A stretch of DNA of 64,000 nucleotides, taken from contig CALRBF010000001.1 in NCBI GenBank assembly GCA_943354045.1, forward strand, positions 259,860 through 323,859. Direction: 5' to 3'. Shown piece by piece: positions 3,863-64,000 of this stretch. The position numbers were made by a program, and so were the translations under genes. The notes under the pieces are model-generated. The model saw only the letters and a list, made by a program, of their open reading frames with translations, was not told the origin of the DNA and ran no database searches. The DNA comes from Parcubacteria group bacterium. Its GTDB lineage: Bacteria > Patescibacteriota > Minisyncoccia > SW-4-49-11. Every line of letters begins with the position of its first letter. Within the stretch, counting starts at the first letter, position 1.

Positions 3863-3930
3863 ATCATATTTTGGGGAAAACAGGGACAGTTTTATTGTCC
3901 TCCTTTGCGCCTGCCTGCGGTAGGCAGGTT
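3863..3930. repeat. Palindromic repeat unit (module m1), 5' flank of the RhuM cassette
   Basis: 'atcatattttggggaaaacagggacagttttattgtcctcctttgcgcctgcctgcggtaggcagg'; near-identical to 5203-5273. Confidence 0.7.
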
Positions 3931-4179
3931 TGCACTATAAGTAATATTTACATACCCCCAGGCCATAGTAGGCCTACAGAAGAAATTTATACGGTTAGTG
4001 AGCTTAGACAAATATTGAAATCACCCCATGAAACCATAAAGCAATTTGATGGGAATAATAGCTTCATTATAGACCTCAGGGAAAAACACTACCCCCCACA
4101 GAACATTCCCCCGACTCTGCAGCGATGCAGAGTCTTTCTTTACTCAAAAATACTCTCAAAAATTTAATTTTATATACAC

Positions 4180-5175
4180 TTACTTTTTCTGAAGTTTACT
4201 TTCTAGTTGATTTATAGTATCCAGATAAGATTGTTCTACTGGGCTTAGAGTTTTTTGCTGATATTTTTTATATTCATCTTGAGCTTTTTGCATTGCTTCT
4301 TTACTACTAATTTTACCTGCATTTCGTAAGACTTCTTCCCCTGTAGCCAACAAAATACTATCTAAATGGTCTGCCCAATCTTGCATCTTCATTGGGACTT
4401 GTCTTTCTGCTTGTCTTTCAGCAAAGTCTAGATATCCTGAGACTATTTGACCCAATGCTCTTAATTCTTTTTCATCTAGATAATTTTTAGCTATTGAGAT
4501 ATCTTGTAATTGCGGGGTATTCCCAGTAAAGGTAGTGAGTCCCATAAATTCTTTTTCCGCATCAGCTCGATTATAAATCACTTCAGCTGCAGTTTGTTTA
4601 TGTACTGCATAATGTATTTTGTTCTGGACTTTTTTGAAAAATTCAATTGAAGTTTTATTATTAGCATCATAATCTATACTTGTTGCATAGATATCTAATA
4701 TCTGTCTATAAAAAACTTTCTCACTAGCTCGAATATTTCGTATACGGGTTAGCAATTCTTTCCAATAATTACCTCCGCCTAGATTTTTGAGCCTCTCATC
4801 ATCCATCGTGAAGCCTTTGAGTATATATTCTTTTAACCTTTGAGTTGCCCAAATTCTAAATTGAGTGGCTATTTTGCTATTAACTCTATAACCTACAGCG
4901 ATAATCATATCTAGATTATAATATGCAATTTCACGATTAACCTCTCTAGTACCTTCTTTTTGAACTATCCGGAAATTCCGGACAGTTGATATCTCGGCTA
5001 ATTCCTGAGTTTTATAGATATTTTGTATATGTTCACTAATAGTTCTGACATCAACTTCAAAAAGTTCTGCCATTAATTTTTGAGATAACCAAATCGTCTC
5101 ATCCTCTATAAAAACATTCAACTTTACCGCTCCATTGGAATCTGTATACAATATAAAGTTGTTTTGCTCAGTCAT
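4180..5175 (-). CDS. RhuM-family (virulence-associated, Fic/DOC-neighbourhood type) protein
   Basis: 331 aa; N-terminal block 'TIWLSQKLMAELFEVDVRTISEHIQNIY...IAVGYRVNSKIATQFRIWATQ' is typical of PF13310-like RhuM proteins; flanked by direct repeat copies. Confidence 0.6.
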   Translation of the reverse strand: MTEQNNFILYTDSNGAVKLNVFIEDETIWLSQKLMAELFEVDVRTISEHIQNIYKTQELAEISTVRNFRIVQKEGTREVNREIAYYNLDMIIAVGYRVNSKIATQFRIWATQRLKEYILKGFTMDDERLKNLGGGNYWKELLTRIRNIRASEKVFYRQILDIYATSIDYDANNKTSIEFFKKVQNKIHYAVHKQTAAEVIYNRADAEKEFMGLTTFTGNTPQLQDISIAKNYLDEKELRALGQIVSGYLDFAERQAERQVPMKMQDWADHLDSILLATGEEVLRNAGKISSKEAMQKAQDEYKKYQQKTLSPVEQSYLDTINQLESKLQKK

Positions 5176-5202: not shown

Positions 5203-5320
5203 TAGCATATTTTGGGTAAAAATATGGACAGTTTTATTGTCCTCCTTTACCTGCCTACCGCAGGTAGGCAGGGAGGAGCTTTAAGTCCCTCTTATACTTT
5301 TTTAGGAGAGGGAAAAGAAA
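5203..5320. repeat. Mosaic palindromic repeat (m1 + m2 modules), 3' flank of the RhuM cassette
   Basis: 'agcatattttgggtaaaaatatggacagttttattgtcctcctttacctgcctaccgcaggtaggcagggaggagctttaagtccctc...ttaggagaggg'. Confidence 0.7.
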
Positions 5321-8672: not shown

Positions 8673-8696
8673 GAGAGTTATTTTTTTACTTTTTTA

Positions 8697-10079
8697 TTAT
8701 ACCATACTTTGTATGAGTTTTATGTCATTTGGATTACTTCCTGCCTCATAGAATACAAGCTGCCTCTCCTTTATAGTATTTGATTGAATTAATGCGTCCA
8801 CATAATTCCAAGCAGCTTCAATTTCATCAGCCCGAATAAATAATGATTGATCTTGTTCAATAATATCTTGTATAAGCCGTGTATATGCCCCTTGACTTCG
8901 CTGCCCAAACGATTCTTCATAGGTGAAATTAAGTTTTACGGGCTGTATACACATTCCTTTTCCGGGAAATTTTGCATTTACCGTATAATATACCTCTTCA
9001 TTTGGCTGTATACTAATAACGAGCTCATTTTGCTGAGGATTGCACCCCTCATCAATATGACTAAAATAGTTAAAACTTTGCTTAAATTTTATTCTAATTT
9101 CAGCTTTAGTCTCTGATAATCGTTTCCCTGTTGATATATAAATAGGAGTATTTTCCCAGCGCAAATTATCTATATAGGCAGTTAATGCTATATATGTCTC
9201 TGTCTTGGACTCTGTAGGGACACCAGTCTCTTCAAGATAACTCTTTTTATCCCCTGAGCTGATATATTGCCCTAAGATTATATCTTTTGACTGAATTGGT
9301 CTTAGGGAATTAAGAATTTTATGCTTTTCATCACGAATATATTCTGCTTCCATAGCGACAGGAGCTTCCATGGTAATCAAAGCTAAGGTTTGCAAAATAT
9401 GATTCTGTAGAATATCTTTGATAATACCGGTATTATCAAAATACTCAGCCCTCTCATTAATACCCCGCTCTTCCCACACATTAATAGAGATTGACTCTAC
9501 ATAATGATTATTGAGTAATGGCTCAAACATAGTATTACCAAATCTCAAAGCTAAAATATTTTGTATTGTCTCCTTCCCAAGATAATGATCTATTCGATAA
9601 ATTTCCTCTTCTCGAAAAGATTCTGCGAGTTGATTATTCAATGCTTTTGCAGATATAATATCCGAGCCAAATGGTTTTTCAAATACAAGAGTATATTCTA
9701 TATCTTTATATTGTTGTTTGATATCGGATAAGGTAGTAATAATATTCCCAAAGGCTTGTGGTGGTATTGCCATATACCAAATAATTCTATCCCCTTTTTG
9801 TATGTCATAATCCCGAATAAAATTCTGAATTGTGAGTATAGTATCAAAGTCTAATTGTATATAATGTAAATTATCAATAAAATCTAATTTCCAATCATGT
9901 ATACCAAGAGAATCTCTCACTAATTGCTGATATTCTTCTTGTGTATAAGGCTTTCTGCCAGCTCCAATAAATTGGGTTTCCCCGATATATTGGCCATAAG
10001 AAAACATTTCAGCTAAAGCTGGGTATAATTTGGTGCGAGCTAAATCTCCCGTAGCACCAGTAATAATAAAATATGTCAT
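8697..10079 (-). CDS. zwf: Glucose-6-phosphate 1-dehydrogenase
   Basis: 'GATGDLA', 'RIDHYLGKE', 'EKPFG' motifs; 460 aa. Confidence 0.88.
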   Translation of the reverse strand: MTYFIITGATGDLARTKLYPALAEMFSYGQYIGETQFIGAGRKPYTQEEYQQLVRDSLGIHDWKLDFIDNLHYIQLDFDTILTIQNFIRDYDIQKGDRIIWYMAIPPQAFGNIITTLSDIKQQYKDIEYTLVFEKPFGSDIISAKALNNQLAESFREEEIYRIDHYLGKETIQNILALRFGNTMFEPLLNNHYVESISINVWEERGINERAEYFDNTGIIKDILQNHILQTLALITMEAPVAMEAEYIRDEKHKILNSLRPIQSKDIILGQYISSGDKKSYLEETGVPTESKTETYIALTAYIDNLRWENTPIYISTGKRLSETKAEIRIKFKQSFNYFSHIDEGCNPQQNELVISIQPNEEVYYTVNAKFPGKGMCIQPVKLNFTYEESFGQRSQGAYTRLIQDIIEQDQSLFIRADEIEAAWNYVDALIQSNTIKERQLVFYEAGSNPNDIKLIQSMV

Positions 10080-16468: not shown

Positions 16469-17722
16469 ATGGAAACCCTAAGACCCATACAAGAACAAGA
16501 AAAACCGTTTTCTGAGTATTCATTGACGGAAATTATAGATGAGATATATACTTCAAACGCTGAGGGAGGGGATGGAGATTTAAGACAAGATTTAGACAAT
16601 ATATCCTTTCAAAAAGAAAAGGAATCTGAGATATTACAACAACTTATAATCTCCTCTGAGGAGCAATCTTCTAATACAAGATATCAAAGACAAATCCATA
16701 TTTTAAAACAAAAATTAGAAGAAATTCAATCATCTCAAAAAGTATATGAGGCTTGCCAAGAGTTGAATTCATATCATTTAGAAGGTAGTTTAGAATTAGA
16801 AGGTGATTCTGTAGAATTTTTATTAGAAAGATATCGTACATATCAGACACTTTTAAATTCTTTAGATGAATCAGAATCTAGTCTTGCCAAAACAGATATT
16901 AAAGCTATTATGGATATTTATTATGCCAAGATTTTAGAAATAATAGCTGAAACTGGAATTGATAAAAAATATGGATTTGGATTTGCTGAAGGAAGAGAGA
17001 TGTCAATAGAATATCTTAGTGATTTAATAATCCCAGATACCGAAAACCCAGAATTTGCTAGATATAAAGAAAGGTCTAGTAAAATAACTCAAGGGAATGC
17101 TAGGTTTTTAACTGAAGGGGAAGAAACAACTACTCAAGATGATTTAAAATGCGCGGAATCAGAAAGAATAGTCACTGAAGAATTATCCCAAGTTCCAGGA
17201 GTGCTAGCTACCATAGACATACCTAAATTTTCAATTGGGGATACCCGGCACAAAGCTGACACTATAGCAATTACTCTTAATCCAGAATTAGTAGATTCTA
17301 TTACTGATCAAGAGATTCAATTAGCAATATATAAAATGATAGAAGCGTATAGAGTAGCTTTATTAGATCATATGATGAAACAAGATGAAAACTCTCTTAT
17401 AAACCCTAGAGACAATATTTTAGGAGATATTATTAGGGTAAATCGTAATATAAAATTAGATAATATTGCTGCTAATTTAAAAGAAAAGGATATAGATTTG
17501 TCACAAATTTTAAGAATTCACAAAATACAAATCAAAACTCAAGCAAGTGAAATGTCCATAACAGCAGAAAAATACAAAGCTAGTAAAATGGCGGTTAGCC
17601 CAGATAAAGTTGGTTTTTTGGCTAGAGAATATCATCCATCAGGAGATCCTCAAGCTGAGGAATTTAATCGATTGCATTTTCAAATTGCAGCTCAAACAGT
17701 TTTGGGAATATCTATAAAATAA
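16469..17722 (+). CDS. Hypothetical acidic protein (no recognisable domain)
   Basis: 417-aa ORF inserted between the two suf blocks on the opposite strand. Confidence 0.45.
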   Translation: METLRPIQEQEKPFSEYSLTEIIDEIYTSNAEGGDGDLRQDLDNISFQKEKESEILQQLIISSEEQSSNTRYQRQIHILKQKLEEIQSSQKVYEACQELNSYHLEGSLELEGDSVEFLLERYRTYQTLLNSLDESESSLAKTDIKAIMDIYYAKILEIIAETGIDKKYGFGFAEGREMSIEYLSDLIIPDTENPEFARYKERSSKITQGNARFLTEGEETTTQDDLKCAESERIVTEELSQVPGVLATIDIPKFSIGDTRHKADTIAITLNPELVDSITDQEIQLAIYKMIEAYRVALLDHMMKQDENSLINPRDNILGDIIRVNRNIKLDNIAANLKEKDIDLSQILRIHKIQIKTQASEMSITAEKYKASKMAVSPDKVGFLAREYHPSGDPQAEEFNRLHFQIAAQTVLGISIK

Positions 17723-27490: not shown

Positions 27491-27680
27491 TGTAGGGGCA
27501 ATATTGTAGCTGCTAGTACTATTATTGTCCTCCCTTAGGGGAGCTTTAAGTCCCTCCTATATTTATTTAGGAGGTGGGTGGGTGTTAGGCCGGAGGAGGA
27601 TAGATTTTAAGCTTGTATTTTATCCTCCCCAAAGTACTACATAATACAGGCGACTATAAGTTCGCCCCTACGAAGTGAAG
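27491..27680. repeat. Mosaic palindromic repeat (m1 fragment + m2 + m3)
   Basis: 'attattgtcctccc', 'ggagctttaagtccctcctatatttatttaggagg', 'ggcgactataagttcgcccctacgaag'. Confidence 0.7.
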
Positions 27681-35963: not shown

Positions 35964-36125
35964 TAGGGGAGCTAGAAAAATTGTCCTCCTTTGCCTGCCT
36001 GCGGTAGGCAGGGAGGAGCTTTCAGTCCCTCCTAAATAAATATAGGAGGAGGTGGCACAGAGTGCCGGAGGTGGATTTTTTCTCTGGTTGGTGTAGCCAG
36101 GCGACTTGGAGGTCGCCCCTACGAT
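35964..36125. repeat. Mosaic palindromic repeat (m1 + m2 + m3)
   Basis: 'ttgtcctcctttgcctgcctgcggtaggcagggaggagctttcagtccctcctaaataaatataggagg...ggcgacttggaggtcgcccctacga'. Confidence 0.75.
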
Positions 36126-46519: not shown

Positions 46520-46745
46520 TTCTTCGTAGGGGCGACCTTTCAGTCGCCTGTGCTTTATAAAGATCATTTATTGCAGGAGACAAGAAAATACTGTCCTCCT
46601 TTGCCTGCCTGCGGTAGGCAGGCAGGCAAAGGAGGTGGATTGGGTTTCAGATTACATTTTATCCACCCTCCCCCTACGGGTACTCCCTCCAAAGGGAGAC
46701 AAAAACACAACTTCACGCAAACTCACACATGGCTCCGACTTTCGA
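46520..46745. repeat. Mosaic palindromic repeat (m3 + m1 long palindrome + m4)
   Basis: 'cgtaggggcgacctttcagtcgcc', 'ctgtcctcctttgcctgcctgcggtaggcaggcaggcaaaggagg', 'ttatccaccctccccctacgggtactccctccaaagggagac'. Confidence 0.75.
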
Positions 46746-54190: not shown

Positions 54191-54320
54191 TGTGGACCTG
54201 ACTGGGATACAAACCAGACTGGTAGTCTTGGGAAACCCACGGTTTCCCAACCTTCCTAGACAGGAAACTCCCGTTTCCCGACCCCTTCCCAACTGGCTCG
54301 ATCATTTGTTTAGTTAATAC
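54191..54320 (-). mobile_element. Miniature insert 3' of tRNA-Ala: partial tRNA 3'-end duplicate (18-nt exact direct repeat) plus a conserved two-hairpin GC-rich module
   Basis: 'tgtggacctgactgggat' at 54191-54208 and 54321-54338; module 'ggaaacccacggtttccc...ggaaactcccgtttcccgaccccttcccaactggctcgatc' shared with 57187-57300. Confidence 0.5.
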
Positions 54321-57104: not shown

Positions 57105-57137
57105 AATTTTGTTTTGAATAATTGAGGGGGGGGGTAT

Positions 57138-57324
57138 TCGATTTCTGGTTTTTTACTCGTTTACGGGGGTGTCTCCGATTGGGATCTCAGTCGCTATAGC
57201 TCCTTGGAAACCCACGGTTTCCAACACTCGGAGTAAACTCCTCGCTGCCTTCCTTCACGGGGAACTCCCGTTCCCCGACCCCTTCCCAGTTCGATCCTTT
57301 AATTATTTACTTTTAATTAATATT
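57138..57324 (-). mobile_element. Miniature insert 3' of tRNA-Arg: 49-nt exact direct repeat of the tRNA 3' end plus trailer, enclosing the conserved two-hairpin GC-rich module
   Basis: 'tcgatttctggttttttactcgtttacgggggtgtctccgattgggatc' at 57138-57186 and 57325-57373; module 'ttggaaacccacggtttccaac...ggggaactcccgttccccgaccccttcccagttcgatcc'. Confidence 0.55.
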
Positions 57325-57356
57325 TCGATTTCTGGTTTTTTACTCGTTTACGGGGG

Positions 57357-57430
57357 TGTCTCCGATTGGGATCGAACCAATAACCTACAGCTTAGAAGGC
57401 TGTTGCTCTATCCAATTGAGCTACAGAGAC
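57357..57430 (-). tRNA. tRNA-Arg (anticodon TCT)
   Basis: Reverse complement 'gtctctgtagctcaattggatagagcaacagc cttctaa gctgt aggttattggttcgatcccaatcggagaca'. Confidence 0.85.
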
Positions 57431-59924: not shown

Positions 59925-59958
59925 GAAAAAGCCCACCGTCCGAAGAGGTGAGCTGGGG
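59925..59958 (-). terminator. Terminator of small acidic gene 1 (shared terminator type)
   Basis: Minus-strand hairpin from 'cccagctcacctcttcggacggtgggc' followed by T5; same 'gcccaccgtccgaaga' core as 62074-62100. Confidence 0.5.
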
Positions 59959-59975
59959 GAGCTGGAAGTGGAGCG

Positions 59976-60272
59976 CTAGACTTCTCGAGGCATATCCTTG
60001 AGGATACGCTCGCGGGAAGATAGAGCTCCTGGTCTCAAAGATTCCATACAGTCAAGAACTGCTTGACTCAACCCCACCAGAAAATTTATCCCTTCGGGAC
60101 TCAACTCCTCAGAGAGAGGCATCTCGGGGTCCATCGGGTCCATCGAATCAATGAGGTCTATGGCATCAGTAGCCTCTGGAATCACAAAATTTCGATCAAC
60201 AAAGGCTTCGAGCGCTCGCTCGGCAAACCCTTCATTAAGTGCAGAGTCTAACTCTTCTTGGGAAATGGACAT
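59976..60272 (-). CDS. Small acidic protein (paralogue family member 1), GC-rich
   Basis: 98 aa, D/E/P-rich; consensus promoter 17 nt upstream; paralogous context to 62132..62281. Confidence 0.45.
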   Translation of the reverse strand: MSISQEELDSALNEGFAERALEAFVDRNFVIPEATDAIDLIDSMDPMDPEMPLSEELSPEGINFLVGLSQAVLDCMESLRPGALSSRERILKDMPREV

Positions 60273-60295
60273 AAAACTTATGCATCAACGCAAAC

Positions 60296-60324
60296 ACCAT
60301 ACCACATTTTTCTAATTTTGTCAA
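60296..60324 (-). promoter_or_regulatory. Strong sigma70-type promoter of small acidic gene 1
   Basis: Minus strand TTGACA (60324-60319), 17 nt, tgg-TATGGT (60301-60296); homologous to 62304-62332. Confidence 0.55.
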
Positions 60325-60371
60325 TATGTTTTGTGTTTTTGCTATAATGCTTATCTCTATTTTATAAACAT

Positions 60372-60515
60372 AATAGCTTATTTACTTATTTTTATATAAT
60401 TTTATATTTTACTATTATGTTATGTTTTATTATTATACATTTTAAATTTCGTAGTGCTTTAAGTCCCTCCTAAATAAATATAGGAGGGGGCGACCTTTCA
60501 GTCGCCCGAAACCTA
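60372..60515. repeat. AT-rich about 70-nt block duplicated at 62381-62450, plus a GC-rich repeat (m2 + m3)
   Basis: 'aatagcttatttacttatttttatataattttatatttt...' matches 62381+; 'gctttaagtccctcctaaataaatataggagggggcgacctttcagtcgccc'. Confidence 0.65.
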
Positions 60516-60597: not shown

Positions 60598-60996
60598 TCA
60601 TTGATAAAGATTTATAAATCCTTCTTTTACTTTAGCAAAATCTATTTCATTCAAAGACCCCATTTTGTTATGCCGTCTCCTATAATCAATTGTTCTGACC
60701 TGCTGTAAACAAGCTGTTATTCTCTTACCTTGATATTCATAGGCCACATACCAAGTACCTGTTTTATTTTTGGTAGTTGTAGGAATAACCAAATATGTCC
60801 ATTTACTTAATCTTTTTAATATAATAACTGGTCTAGAAAACTTATCTCCCTTACCGCTGACTTCTGTTCCAATATTCTCTCCTAATTGACACCACCAAAT
60901 ATCTCGTTCTTTGACAAATGGAGCTTTGTGATTACTTTTATCTAACTTAGATTTTAATACTAACCATTCCTTAAATCTTTTGATAAATTTTTGCAT
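60598..60996 (-). CDS. MazF/PemK-family endoribonuclease toxin-like protein; no antitoxin ORF evident
   Basis: 'ERDIWWCQLGENIGTEVSGKGDKFSRPVIILKR...YLVIPTTTK' matches the MazF/PemK core; surrounded by repeats. Confidence 0.55.
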   Translation of the reverse strand: MQKFIKRFKEWLVLKSKLDKSNHKAPFVKERDIWWCQLGENIGTEVSGKGDKFSRPVIILKRLSKWTYLVIPTTTKNKTGTWYVAYEYQGKRITACLQQVRTIDYRRRHNKMGSLNEIDFAKVKEGFINLYQ

Positions 60997-61054
60997 ATAG
61001 TATTGATATAATTTGTATAGATTATATCTTAACTAAAGCTATGTGTATAGGAGG

Positions 61055-61440
61055 AGGACGGGGTGGAATGTTCTGTATTCGTAGGGCTTTAAGTCCCTCC
61101 TATATTTATTTAGGAGGGGGCGACCTCTCAATCGCCCGTGGTATTATTGTCTCCCTTTTGGGGTAGTTTATTATTGTCCTCCTTTGGAGGAGGTGGATAG
61201 TTATTAAAGTTGTATTCTAGTTTTTGAATAAAATTTAGTAATATACTTTATCCACCCTCCCCCTACGGGTACTCCCTCCAAAGGGAGACAAAAATACAGT
61301 CCACACCCGTCACTTCGTGACACCCTCGCCAGCGAGGCCTGCCTGCGGTAGGCAGGGACAGTTTTTGTCCTCCCTTGGGGGACATTAAAACCCTCCACCC
61401 CGTCAGGCAAGCCTGCCACCCCCTCCCAAACTCTATGCTA
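61055..61440. repeat. Largest composite of mosaic palindromic repeat modules (m2, m3, variable-loop 'ggtggata...tatccacc' hairpin, m4, inverted m1, 'ccaccccgtcagg')
   Basis: Modules seen directly and shared with 46520-46745, 52320-52600 and 62455-62650. Confidence 0.75.
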
Positions 61441-61470
61441 TAATATGGATATATATACTAAATATTTTCT

Positions 61471-62070
61471 ATGCCCAAGCTCAAATCATCAACCTATACT
61501 TTCTCCCCCCTACAGGAGGGGACTTTGCCTTTTGATGCCAATAGCAAGCGCAATGTAACAGATCAATTAGCTTGGGCTAAAAGAGAGGATATTCTAGAGA
61601 CTATTAACCCACATAAAATCCCTATATCGCTCTTACTCGTGAATATTGACCGGGATAATAATATTGGTAATATAATCAGATCAGCTAATACTTTCGGGGT
61701 GCAGGAGGTGCTAATTTATGGCAGGAAAAAATTTGACCGTAGAACTAGTGTTGGAGCTGAATTTTTTATGCAATTTTGGCATATTCGCTTTGTTGAGGAG
61801 TTAGAGACTCTACAACAAGAATTTGATATTATACTCGGATTAGAACAAACCTCTGATTCAGTAGAATTACATAGCTATCAATGGCCTCAAAATGCTAAAA
61901 TACTAATTGCTATTGGGCATGAGGGTACTGGGCTTCCCCAAGAAATACTGGATATTTGTGATACTACCCTTGAGATTGAGCAATACGGCACCACCAGATC
62001 CCTGAATGTATCAGTTGCTACAGGGATTGTACTATATGATTATCGGGTGAAAAGAGAGTTAGTAAAGTAA
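61471..62070 (+). CDS. TrmH/SpoU-family RNA 2'-O-methyltransferase
   Basis: SPOUT motifs 'LLLVNIDRDNNIGNIIRSANTFG', 'IAIGHEGTGL', 'LNVSVATGIVLY'. Confidence 0.75.
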   Translation: MPKLKSSTYTFSPLQEGTLPFDANSKRNVTDQLAWAKREDILETINPHKIPISLLLVNIDRDNNIGNIIRSANTFGVQEVLIYGRKKFDRRTSVGAEFFMQFWHIRFVEELETLQQEFDIILGLEQTSDSVELHSYQWPQNAKILIAIGHEGTGLPQEILDICDTTLEIEQYGTTRSLNVSVATGIVLYDYRVKRELVK

Positions 62071-62100
62071 AAAGCCCACCGTCCGAAGACGGGGGCTGGG
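62069..62100 (-). terminator. Terminator of small acidic gene 2
   Basis: Minus strand 'cccagcccccgtcttcggacggtgggc' followed by T5. Confidence 0.55.
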
Positions 62101-62131
62101 AGTGGCTGAGAATCCACTCAAGATGAAGACG

Positions 62132-62281
62132 TTAGCTCTCCTGAGTGGGTTCAACCTCATGGGCTTCGGGGTCTACAAAGAACCCTTTAGCAGCTTCATT
62201 AGCCACTGGCCTGAAGAGATTCTCCAGAACCTCAAAGCCAAGCTGCACCAGCTGCTGGTCGGTGGTGGGGGTGGAGGACAT
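62132..62281 (-). CDS. Small acidic protein (paralogue family member 2), 49 aa from an internal Met; GC-rich
   Basis: 'MSSTPTTDQQLVQLGFEVLENLFRPVANEAAKGFFVDPEAHEVEPTQES'. The segment is open in three frames, so coding status is uncertain; the ORF-track N-terminal extension is AT-rich promoter sequence. Confidence 0.35.
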   Translation of the reverse strand: MSSTPTTDQQLVQLGFEVLENLFRPVANEAAKGFFVDPEAHEVEPTQES

Positions 62282-62303
62282 GTCAGACCTGAAAGACAAG
62301 CTA

Positions 62304-62332
62304 TATATACCACATTTCCTTAATTTTATCAA
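62304..62332 (-). promoter_or_regulatory. Strong sigma70-type promoter of small acidic gene 2
   Basis: Minus strand TTGATA (62332-62327), 17 nt, tgg-TATATA (62309-62304). Confidence 0.55.
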
Positions 62333-62454
62333 TACATCTTGTGATTTAATCATAATATCCACCCTTACTTTATCAATTTAATAGCTTATTTACTTGTTTT
62401 TATATAATATTATATTTTGATATTACTTTATGTTTCATCCTGAATAATTTTGAC

Positions 62455-62655
62455 TTTCGTATGGCTTTTGTCCTAAAATTCCCCTCTTGAGGGGTGTCAT
62501 ATTTACCTGACGGGGTGGAAAAGAAAATATTCATAAATAATACAGAAACACTCCACCCCGTCTTCCTGCTATGTAAACATGGCAGGAATCCACCCCTCAA
62601 CGAGGGGAATTTAACTCAATCCACCTGCTATCGATAAAAAGGGAGGACAAAATAA
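62455..62655. repeat. MITE-like nested palindromic element with about 30-nt imperfect terminal inverted repeats
   Basis: Left end 'ttttgtcctaaaattcccctcttgaggggtg'; right end is the reverse complement 'cacccctcaacgaggggaattt...gggaggacaaaataa'; inner inverted repeat 'tgacggggtgga...tccaccccgtc'. Confidence 0.6.
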
Positions 62656-62718
62656 TATCCGCCTCCCTACACACTAATAGCCAGTGTAAAAACTGGCTTT
62701 TTTATTATATATAAAATT

Positions 62719-62756
62719 AAAAAAAGCCAGTCGTCTTGTAGGCGGCTGGTGGTTTT
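62719..62756 (-). terminator. Terminator of the infB-rbfA transcription unit (bidirectional-looking)
   Basis: 'ccagtcgtcttgtaggcggctgg' flanked by an A-run and a T-run; a second hairpin 'gccagt gtaaaaa actggc tttttt' at 62684-62709. Confidence 0.5.
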
Positions 62757-62773
62757 TGAGTGAGTATGAACAC

Positions 62774-63028
62774 TCAGAGAGTCGGCGGAATAGGGATTTC
62801 CCATTGAGCCATAAGGCTTTCATGGCGGACAAGAGCATATCTCGATTCATTACTATTTTCTTTTTTATGTTTTTCTCTGAAAATTTTTAACCAATAAAGA
62901 AATTTTTGAGTAACAGGATGATTAACATCCATAAACCCTCCAAAGAACAAATTATAAAAAATACTATACCACAAATTCTGACTTTTATCAAAAAAGTTAA
63001 GTTTTTTACAAGTTGAGGTAAAATACAA
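62774..63028 (-). CDS. Hypothetical protein downstream of rbfA
   Basis: 84-aa ORF; its C-terminal codons overlap the hairpin region, so the real gene may be shorter. Confidence 0.3.
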   Translation of the reverse strand: MYFTSTCKKLNFFDKSQNLWYSIFYNLFFGGFMDVNHPVTQKFLYWLKIFREKHKKENSNESRYALVRHESLMAQWEIPIPPTL

Positions 63029-63373
63029 TTATTTTTCTTCCTCTAACTCATCCAATAACTTTTCTAATTCATAAGCTTCGAGAGCCTCGGTATCTATCTC
63101 AAATCGGAGTTCCGGGGAGCGACCTCTTGAGAGTATATCAGCGAGGAAATATTCATATTCTTTATGAGTTTTACGTAGTTTTTGTAATACGGTACCCTGT
63201 TTGTCATTCGGGAAAACTGTCACCTTAATATCAGCAACTTGCAAATCTGCACTCACAATAACCCGTGATACGGTAACCAGAATTCCAGGATCCACATCTA
63301 ATTCTCGGAGTAGCAATAGGGATAATTGCTCCTGAATAAGTTGTTGATACCGAATTAAATGTCTGTCTGCCAT
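63029..63373 (-). CDS. rbfA: Ribosome-binding factor A
   Basis: 114 aa; KH-like RbfA sequence; follows infB. Confidence 0.8.
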   Translation of the reverse strand: MADRHLIRYQQLIQEQLSLLLLRELDVDPGILVTVSRVIVSADLQVADIKVTVFPNDKQGTVLQKLRKTHKEYEYFLADILSRGRSPELRFEIDTEALEAYELEKLLDELEEEK

Positions 63374-63376
63374 TGC

Positions 63377-64000
63377 TTATTTTTTAATTTGTTCATATAC
63401 ATAGAGTATATCTCCCTCTATTGGAGTAGTTTTCTTAAAAGAACAAGAGATTACCATTCCACATTCATTTCCGTCTGAGACATCAGATACATCTTGTTTA
63501 TCTTGTTGAAGATTAGTTAATTTACCTTGTACAATAACCTTGCCTTCGGAATTCTCTATTTCAATCAGACCATTGCGCACCATACGCCCAATTTGTACAA
63601 TTCCTCCCAAAATAAGACTTTTTTTATCTTCTTTGAATACTTTCAATACTTTGAGTTCCCCGAGATCTGTTCTGGTCACTTTTGGACCTTCTAATTGAAT
63701 GATTTGGTCTCGAATTTCATCGATTAATTCATATATCAGCCGATAATATTTGATAGCGACATCCTTGAGGTCTGCTAATTCTTTTATTTTCTTATCTTGT
63801 TTGATACCAAACCCTAATATTACCGCTTGTTGTACTTTTGCTTGAGCAATATCATTAGCGGTAATATCTCCTACTTCTCGTCCTACAATAGTAATTTTGA
63901 TATCAAGTTGTACAATTTGCCCAAGAGCATATTCTATAGCATCCAGGGAGCCGATAGAATCGGCTTTGATAATAAGATTGAGAGTTTTCTCTTTTTCGAG
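63377..64000 (-). CDS. infB: Translation initiation factor IF-2, C-terminal part (5' end lies beyond the window)
   Basis: Reading frame stays open to nt 64000; IF-2 C-terminal beta-barrel sequence 'KVLKVFKEDKKSLILGGIVQIG'. Confidence 0.85.
   Translation of the reverse strand, partial: LEKEKTLNLIIKADSIGSLDAIEYALGQIVQLDIKITIVGREVGDITANDIAQAKVQQAVILGFGIKQDKKIKELADLKDVAIKYYRLIYELIDEIRDQIIQLEGPKVTRTDLGELKVLKVFKEDKKSLILGGIVQIGRMVRNGLIEIENSEGKVIVQGKLTNLQQDKQDVSDVSDGNECGMVISCSFKKTTPIEGDILYVYEQIKK

Follow-up and report, generated by a model that had tools for sequence, protein, structure and literature searches.

The analysed window, a 64-kb stretch of about 36% GC with tightly packed genes, contains mosaics of short GC-rich hairpin modules in roughly a dozen of its intergenic spacers. 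One of them, the TrmH-RbfA spacer in the 3' region of the TrmH gene, is occupied by a nested inverted repeat (positions 62466-62652), which is the feature considered here. Of the window ORFs, 21 were scanned against Pfam (most of them located beside repeat clusters) and proved to be ordinary genes, e.g., EF-P, YebC, S9, S15, BipA, and CofD, together with a RhuM protein and a PemK/MazF toxin; none of the 21 was a transposase, the kind of gene with which the original prediction had proposed to match the element. At the Rfam gathering threshold only tRNAs were recovered in the window, an E-value scan of the element returned weak matches far under the threshold (STnc430, c-di-AMP), and 10 canonical copies gave sub-threshold matches, mostly to generic hairpin (microRNA-precursor) models. 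The element thus corresponds to no known RNA. One public contig, identical to the window over 61403-64000, ends at GC-rich repeats on both sides.

Other repeats of the window were recorded alongside. The PemK/MazF-type toxin gene (60598-60996) is situated between two repeat mosaics (60448-60508 and 61047-61425), and no antitoxin ORF was identified for it. A module consisting of (TTC)GTAG and GGGCGACC..GTCGCC, present at 46522-46551, 60481-60507, 61113-61138, 27646-27675, and 36098-36124, bears a GTAG tag, as is typical for REPs associated with RAYT. Two 50-nt stretches (57137-57186 and 57324-57373, 187 nt apart) form a perfect direct repeat that includes the 3' end of a tRNA-Arg gene (57355-57430, minus strand); an integrated element that is very small or has decayed would leave att sites of this appearance. 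A related 65-nt repeat (54251-54315 and 57248-57312) adjoins tRNA-Ala.

The nested palindrome is composed of three arm pairs of 9, 21, and 11 nt. The middle arms, AAATTCCCCTCTTGAGGGGTG (62476-62496) and CACCCCTCAAcGAGGGGAATTT (62591-62612), pair at every one of their 21 aligned positions, the loop of the right-hand arm having an additional C (an ungapped repeat finder reports 23 nt at 78%), and 0.00 copies of the 21-mer are expected from shuffles. The inner arms, GACGGGGTGGA (62509-62519) and TCCACCCCGTC (62552-62562), match at 11/11 positions, and their motif occurs five times in the window at ≤ 1 mismatch (four of them exact) against 0.27 expected from shuffles. Further exact copies lie at 61057-61067 (-) and at 61394-61404 (+), the latter within the repeat near 61395 where the motif had already been noticed. 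The outer arms, TTTTGTCCT (62466-62474) and AGGACAAAA (62644-62652), match at 9/9 positions and are asymmetric, the left one adjoining the middle arm and the right one lying 31 nt past it. Folded as DNA, the element reaches -44.5 kcal/mol versus -18.3 for shuffles (z -7.8), and folded as RNA it has z -10.2 on the plus strand and z -9.0 on the minus strand. The repeat strings quoted in the original prediction are in place, and arm matches and folding both confirm a nested palindrome; its terminal inverted repeat of ~30 nt is interrupted on the right by the 31 nt just mentioned. This palindrome is a genuine feature, and the dispersed family of which it is a member behaves like mobile DNA.

The feature consists of two copies, placed head-to-head, of one half-element of ~45-60 nt, referred to here as U. 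The left one, U(-), at 62476-62519 in plus-strand coordinates, is inverted relative to the right half and contains a pyrimidine block CCCCTC (62481-62486), a purine block GAGGGG (62489-62494), and a mirror G/T block GGGGTG (62512-62517), with a terminal GGA at 62519. After an AT-rich spacer of 32 nt (62520-62551) follows the right one, U(+), at 62552-62612 on the plus strand, made up of TCCACCCCGTC (62552-62562), a variable hairpin (62563-62588), and the 3' part CACCCCTC-AAC-GAGGGG-AATTT (62591-62612). The variable hairpin TTCCTGC..GCAGGAA is found in the right half only, and the equivalent position of the left half has a weak hairpin, GTCA..TGAC (62496-62511). A strict scan for potential intrastrand triplexes matched the left half at 62481 (+) and the right half at 62607 (-).

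On its left flank, the outer arm TTTTGTCCT (62466-62474, plus strand) has the appearance of a half-element end of a neighbouring type (ending in ...GGGACAAAA / TTTTGTCC) that has been truncated, and the junction GTCCTAAAATTCCCC at this arm recurs in two other loci, L188 and L002, the latter a Candidatus Parcubacteria MAG whose UvrD is 89% identical to that of the window. The outer right arm is part of a degenerate further half-element, ATCCACCTGCTATCGATAAAAAGGGAGGACAAAA (62619-62652, plus strand), which is conserved in L002, and a short remnant, ATCCGCCTCCC (62656-62667, plus strand), may correspond to the start of a V-type half-element (see below), which it resembles. Outside the element, the terminator-like hairpins noted downstream were confirmed at 62679-62698 and 62726-62750 (plus strand); in relatives with an empty site, both come straight after TrmH. 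Upstream, an AT-rich stretch on the minus strand (62307-62468) is the promoter region belonging to a small ORF at about 62132-62280 on that strand. It is paralogous to 60299-60460 (75% identity) and has probably arrived with the left half. On the plus strand, the promoter-like TTGACT-18-TAAAAT at 62450-62479 is followed by the terminator at 62679-62698, and this copy of the element could thus be transcribed as RNA; the promoter-like site is not conserved in L002.

The U consensus reads TCCACCCCG(T/C)C, variable hairpin, CACCCCTC-AA-GAGGGG-AAT, and comprises a hairpin with CCCCTC and GAGGGG arms, a second, variable hairpin for which CGTC is the usual tag, and, mirroring the purine arm, a GGGGTG block. 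This three-block rule applies to every type of half-element, with the G/T block at the inner end mirroring the purine arm (G opposite G, T/A opposite A). The pyrimidine, purine, and mirror blocks are CCCCTC, GAGGGG, and GGGGTG in type U; CTCCTC, GAGGAG, and GAGGTG in type V; CTCCCTCC, GGAGGGAG, and GAGGGTGG in type M4; CCCTC, GAGGG, and GGGTG in type W; and CCCCTCT, AGAGGGG, and GGGGTGT in the types of loci L213 and L214, so that the mirror block covaries with the hairpin in six variants. In all fetched loci taken together, GAGGGG hairpins had a GGGGTG partner 191 times and a GAGGTG partner three times, GAGGAG hairpins had GAGGTG 22 times and GGGGTG twice, and AGGGAG hairpins had GAGGGT 14 times versus one or two times for other blocks, a covariation that rests on a handful of subfamilies and hence on few independent events. 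The mirror block accompanies about half of the strand-wise hairpin matches, as expected if essentially every element has the block on one strand. Strict three-block motifs were found five times in the window, two of them being the halves described here, and not once in 30 Markov controls. The layout is that of a class II purine-motif potential intrastrand triplex, and the formation of such a triplex is predicted.

The V half has the form ATTCTCCTCTTGAGGAGTACCC..GGGGGAGGTGGA, and a consistent subfamily pairs U with V as the left half; the window module M4 (ATCCACCCTCCCCCTACGGGTACTCCCTCCAAAGGGAGAC) is a V-like half. A reading of the third block as a direct repeat was rejected, since types V and M4 fit the mirror alignment only. 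The long-range stem was likewise rejected as the selected structure: V changes C-G to T-A within its own hairpin and thereby mismatches the long-range pairing, which shows that the local hairpins, rather than the long-range stem, are conserved. The variable hairpin had 98 distinct sequences in 134 units among the matches listed, folding at a mean of -3.8 kcal/mol versus -1.3 for shuffles, and 64% formed ≥ 4 base pairs. Directly after ...CCCC, 56 of the 98 distinct sequences (57%) start with GTC, giving the CGTC tag, and 20 start with GCC; both halves of the window copy read CGTC/GACG. The variable hairpin differs in nearly every copy (window 62496-62511 and 62563-62588; loci L082-L201), and the inspected copies are still palindromic.

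A metagenome scan with the 21-mer identified at least 120 loci, with 141 units among the matches listed; the search pattern fixes AATTT and so constrains the composition downstream of the unit. Among these listed matches, 128 of the 141 units had a CCACCCC-type motif ≤ 70 nt upstream, 32 formed head-to-head pairs built like that of the window (spacers of 7-60 nt), and 109 had no U- or V-type partner ≤ 220 nt upstream. U halves also occur alone. Copies with the same architecture therefore exist elsewhere, as had been anticipated, both as these 32 metagenome pairs and in L002 (reverse complement 17232-17375). The window itself has one full U-U pair, and partial U units lie near 61057 and near 61394; the 17.6 kb of L002 contain a full pair, a mixed pair of M4 and U, and a half that stands by itself. 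The U family is made up of dispersed, modular, GC-rich palindromic repeats that fill many spacers of an AT-rich Parcubacteria (CPR) genome. The suggestion that the element is the mobile progenitor of the local repeats was not borne out: the mosaics of the window and of the fetched loci include at least six related types of half-element, and it belongs to one of these.

Viral contigs scanned with the 21-mer gave no match, a full-text literature search for the core sequence found no paper, and the literature on palindromic repeats in Parcubacteria yielded CRISPR-related papers only. Some family members are located in frame within protein-coding genes, i.e., inside T9SS C-terminal sorting domains (L105, L106, and also L095, L181), as a C-terminal tail on KsgA/RsmA (L177), and as internal inserts in a conserved CPR protein (L120, L116, L187, L200). 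The copies in T9SS sorting domains imply that family members occur outside the CPR.

The history of the site was followed in relatives whose TrmH is 82-92% identical, by comparing the orthologous stretch after that gene. In L202/L203 and L204, the TrmH-RbfA spacer measures 306-335 nt and contains terminators only, so that the site is empty of the element. The same spacer is occupied by a W(-)...M4(+) pair in L206, by an M4(-)...U(+) pair in L002, and by U(-)...U(+) in the window. A spacer that is empty in two close relatives and carries different pairs in two others turns over quickly, and close relatives thus differ at orthologous sites by gain, loss, and exchange of half-elements. The right half with its flank is common to the window and L002 (81% identity over 235 nt; the right half is orthologous to L002 reverse complement 8683-8760), but their left halves differ, and the point at which the homology ends is only a few bases away from where TCCACCCCGTC starts. 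The left half comes after the small minus-strand ORF with its promoter region, a module paralogous to 59925-60460, and another paralogous small-ORF unit in L002 is likewise followed by a U(-) half. The window copy is therefore a composite, in which an older right half is joined to a left half brought in with the small-ORF/promoter module, and it was assembled at a hot spot and not by a single insertion. No target-site duplication, which the original prediction had proposed to look for, was found at the boundaries of the window copy, of other pairs, or of gene-carrying units.

The three paralogous modules (window 59925-60460 and 62070-62468; L002 reverse complement 4720-5150) each consist of a terminator hairpin, a small, unrelated minus-strand ORF, a conserved AT-rich promoter region (TTGATA-17-TATAxT), and then GC-rich repeats. 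The small ORFs seem to travel together with the repeats, and the two in the window had no Pfam match.

In other genomes, which represent many uncultured lineages, U halves are associated with a gene. Among the matches listed, 13 of the 120 loci, which were selected by U, encode a DUF559 protein (Pfam PF04480), and in 12 of the 120 the distance from the DUF559 gene to a U unit is no more than ~120 nt; there, U halves in inverted orientation enclose the gene, forming a unit of ~0.5 kb of which they are the ends. Two geometries were observed. The largest Parcubacteria subfamily has U(+)-gene-U(-), where the TGA within AAATTCCCCTCTTGA serves as the stop codon, resulting in the C-terminal peptide KFPS; in U(-)-gene-U(+), the gene takes the spacer position of a head-to-head pair (L166, L162, L192, L182, L163). 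A total of 1424 DUF559 homologues were found, the named ones being labelled Parcubacteria, Paceibacterota, or Nomurabacteria. In 20 homologues selected by protein, the U(+) read-through peptide HPSRGE was present in 18, and the U(-) peptide KFPS or a close variant in 17. In L210 and L211, the two gene-flanking halves are the sole U units in 20 kb, and the gene is located inside conserved operons (a pilus operon and the secY-adk-map operon), placed as a selfish insert would be. Among the profile matches, a Cloacimonadota MAG and an Aenigmarchaeota MAG show this arrangement in their DNA as well, each with a half-element variant of its own. The nearest solved structure to the DUF559 protein is 3HRL, named 'endonuclease-like protein', and YcjD-type proteins are profile-level relatives of Vsr (PMC1189080). 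By tblastn, DUF559 had no match in the 64-kb window or in the 17.6 kb of L002. The link between U and DUF559 is, from these sequence comparisons, strong as an association; its mechanism is put forward below as a proposal.

Two arrangements around DUF559 were additionally recorded. In the Aenigmarchaeota and Cloacimonadota MAGs (L213, 3480-3600; L214, 3490-3625), the U(+) unit downstream of DUF559 is present in two or three tandem copies and the gene lies inside a restriction-modification gene cluster. The RhuM-family gene of the window (4180-5175) is located between two repeat clusters (3895-3980 and 5235-5312); in other lineages (L182; protein P0238), U(-)-DUF559 comes after a RhuM gene or is fused with it, and no DUF559 remnant is visible in the sequence downstream of the RhuM gene at 4180.

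The sole DUF559 gene of E. coli K-12 is ycjD (in the region 11196-11761 of L212, NC_000913). TMECO number 9 is located 167 nt from it (supplement of PMC4666352), and a degenerate inverted BoxC/TMECO copy overlaps its stop codon. The BoxC/TMECO repeat near ycjD occurs at a median of 18 places per E. coli genome, and ycjD was found in 3378 of 5426 complete E. coli genomes. In two evenly spaced samples, 69 genomes with ycjD had 11-26 BoxC-like places, and among 42 genomes without it, 24 had ≤ 4 and the others 8-18; O157:H7, which is devoid of ycjD, has ~12 BoxC-like copies. The gene is distributed over phylogroups A, B1, and C (PMC12817139), and because its distribution tracks phylogroups the correlation between ycjD and BoxC is confounded and suggestive only.

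We consider it probable that the window pair is a REPIN/BoxC-like selfish repeat, for which DUF559 would be the mobilising or targeting enzyme. The nuclease would recognise the half-elements as folded DNA (a hairpin, possibly a triplex), and nicking followed by repair or recombination would copy or move them. Gene-less pairs such as that of the window would then be non-autonomous passengers, by analogy with what REPINs are for RAYT transposases, and no host function would be required for a pair in the 3' region of TrmH. More tentatively, DUF559 (Vsr-like) nucleases might be the missing partner enzymes of BoxC/PIT-type and CGTC-type repeats across bacteria and archaea, with the window element as a non-autonomous member. 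It is possible, and we hold this with the same reserve, that they form a second RAYT-REPIN-like system in which a PD-(D/E)XK nuclease recognises a hairpin-plus-mirror-block (possibly triplex) fold.

The same DUF559 association is equally expected if the nuclease gene homes into the repeats. In such a reading the pairs are targets rather than passengers: either a free-standing, homing-type DUF559 gene inserts into U pairs that already exist, or H-DNA-prone repeats spread and rearrange by host recombination alone. This would agree with the gene being exactly in the spacer position of the pair in the five loci of U(-)-gene-U(+) geometry, with its selfish-insert-like placement inside conserved operons, and with the genomic rearrangements linked to TMECO loci that have no transposase nearby (PMC4666352). 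We nevertheless regard it as unlikely, as the largest Parcubacteria subfamily has the opposite geometry with its two U units being the sole ones within 20 kb, and as the DUF559 clades each have their own matching half-element variant, which enzyme-substrate pairing fits equally well. A structured element retained for a function in the host, for instance as a small RNA, as a stabiliser or attenuator in the 3'-UTR, or as a binding site for a protein, would account for the very stable fold on both strands and for the promoter-like site (62450-62479) and terminator (62679-62698) on the plus strand, and there is precedent in REPs of 3' regions, which have known effects on mRNA (PMC3733652). Given that the element has no Rfam match, that its site is empty in close relatives and filled by other module types in others, that the promoter-like site is not conserved in L002, that members of the family also lie within coding sequence and form the two ends of a gene, and that purine-motif triplexes do not form in RNA (introduction of PMC4666352), such a function is very unlikely.

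The foldback element of the original prediction survives as a non-coding, self-folding member of a dispersed repeat family, but not as a classical MITE, that is, as a deletion derivative of a DDE-transposase IS inserted as one unit with TIRs and a target-site duplication. Its nested inverted ends, small size, lack of coding capacity, and copies in other genomes would all be in keeping with a MITE; however, there are no flanking direct repeats at the window copy, at 32 other pairs, or at gene-carrying units, halves are found alone, the history of the left half at the site differs from that of the right half, and no transposase was seen among the scanned neighbours, the only gene bounded by U ends being the DUF559 nuclease. 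We thus view the MITE explanation as highly improbable and largely refuted. A chance palindrome in GC-rich intergenic DNA, for which nothing speaks apart from the shortness of the 9-nt outer arms, is refuted by the 0.00 expected 21-mers, the fold z of -7.8 to -10, and more than 100 related copies elsewhere, and has practically no chance of being correct.

Small palindromic repeats (REP, BoxC, CGTC-REP) are common in bacterial genomes, and the propagating enzyme (RAYT) is known for the GTAG class only; the literature states no associated mobility gene for BoxC/TMECO and CGTC repeats. The locus leads to a CPR repeat family that joins a BoxC-like three-block layout with a CGTC-tagged variable hairpin, and the U units, being systematically the inverted ends of a DUF559 nuclease gene, offer a concrete candidate enzyme, including YcjD in E. 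coli. The family also bears on how very small CPR genomes tolerate, gain, and lose repeat mosaics, and on why assemblies break there.

Compared with known systems, the element shares with MITEs (Nezha, Correia/NEMIS, RUP, ERIC) a size of < 300 bp, non-coding character, inverted ends, a capacity to fold into a long hairpin, and copies in other genomes, but it differs by the absence of a target-site duplication and of a matching DDE transposase and by its modular half-elements that are also found independently. As with Rickettsia palindromic elements (RPEs), some family members lie in frame within protein-coding genes, although the window copy is intergenic; the likeness drawn here is one of location. 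The resemblance to the REP/REPIN-RAYT system (PMC3733652, PMC3116915) extends to a short palindrome with a conserved tag, a varying stem, and a CA/CCA-like tail, to inverted doublets whose spacer allows one long hairpin to form and which have no target-site duplication, to units that flank a single small nuclease-type gene as inverted repeats, and to BIME-like mosaics with occasional copies inside genes. Here, however, the flanked gene encodes a DUF559/Vsr-like PD-(D/E)XK nuclease and no Y1 HUH transposase, and each U unit has an extra conserved hairpin and mirror blocks compared to REPs. In CGTC-REP families 1-4 (Di Nocera 2013), the stem has 8-9 bp with the first two pairs A/T and a loop of 4-5 nt, whereas the variable hairpins of U have GC-rich stems of mostly 4-7 bp and loops of 3-4 nt, which places them outside that definition.

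The layout itself is the one described for the BoxC/PIT/TMECO repeats of E. coli (Hoyne and Maher 2000; Holder et al. 2015, PMC4666352), where a pyrimidine arm, a purine arm, and a G-rich mirror block are likewise present. The element departs from the BoxC/TMECO consensus CCCTCNCCC-N3-6-GGGNGAGGG-N3-GGGNGAGGG: the stems here have 6-8 triplets and not 9, with CCCCTC instead of CCCTCNCCC, and in place of the 3-nt second loop of BoxC there are 14-40 nt across the family, with a variable hairpin of their own (the window copy has a 6-nt stem and a second loop of 17 nt in the left half and 37 nt in the right half). The host, furthermore, is a CPR bacterium, and the triplex is predicted from sequence. 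BoxC/PIT/TMECO repeats have been described as inverted pairs of unlike partners at rearrangement-prone loci with no transposase nearby (PMC4666352), and both BoxC/TMECO and the U family are GC-rich, dispersed, intergenic, often arranged as inverted pairs of unlike partners, and located at loci that are unusually rearranged between strains and have no associated transposase.
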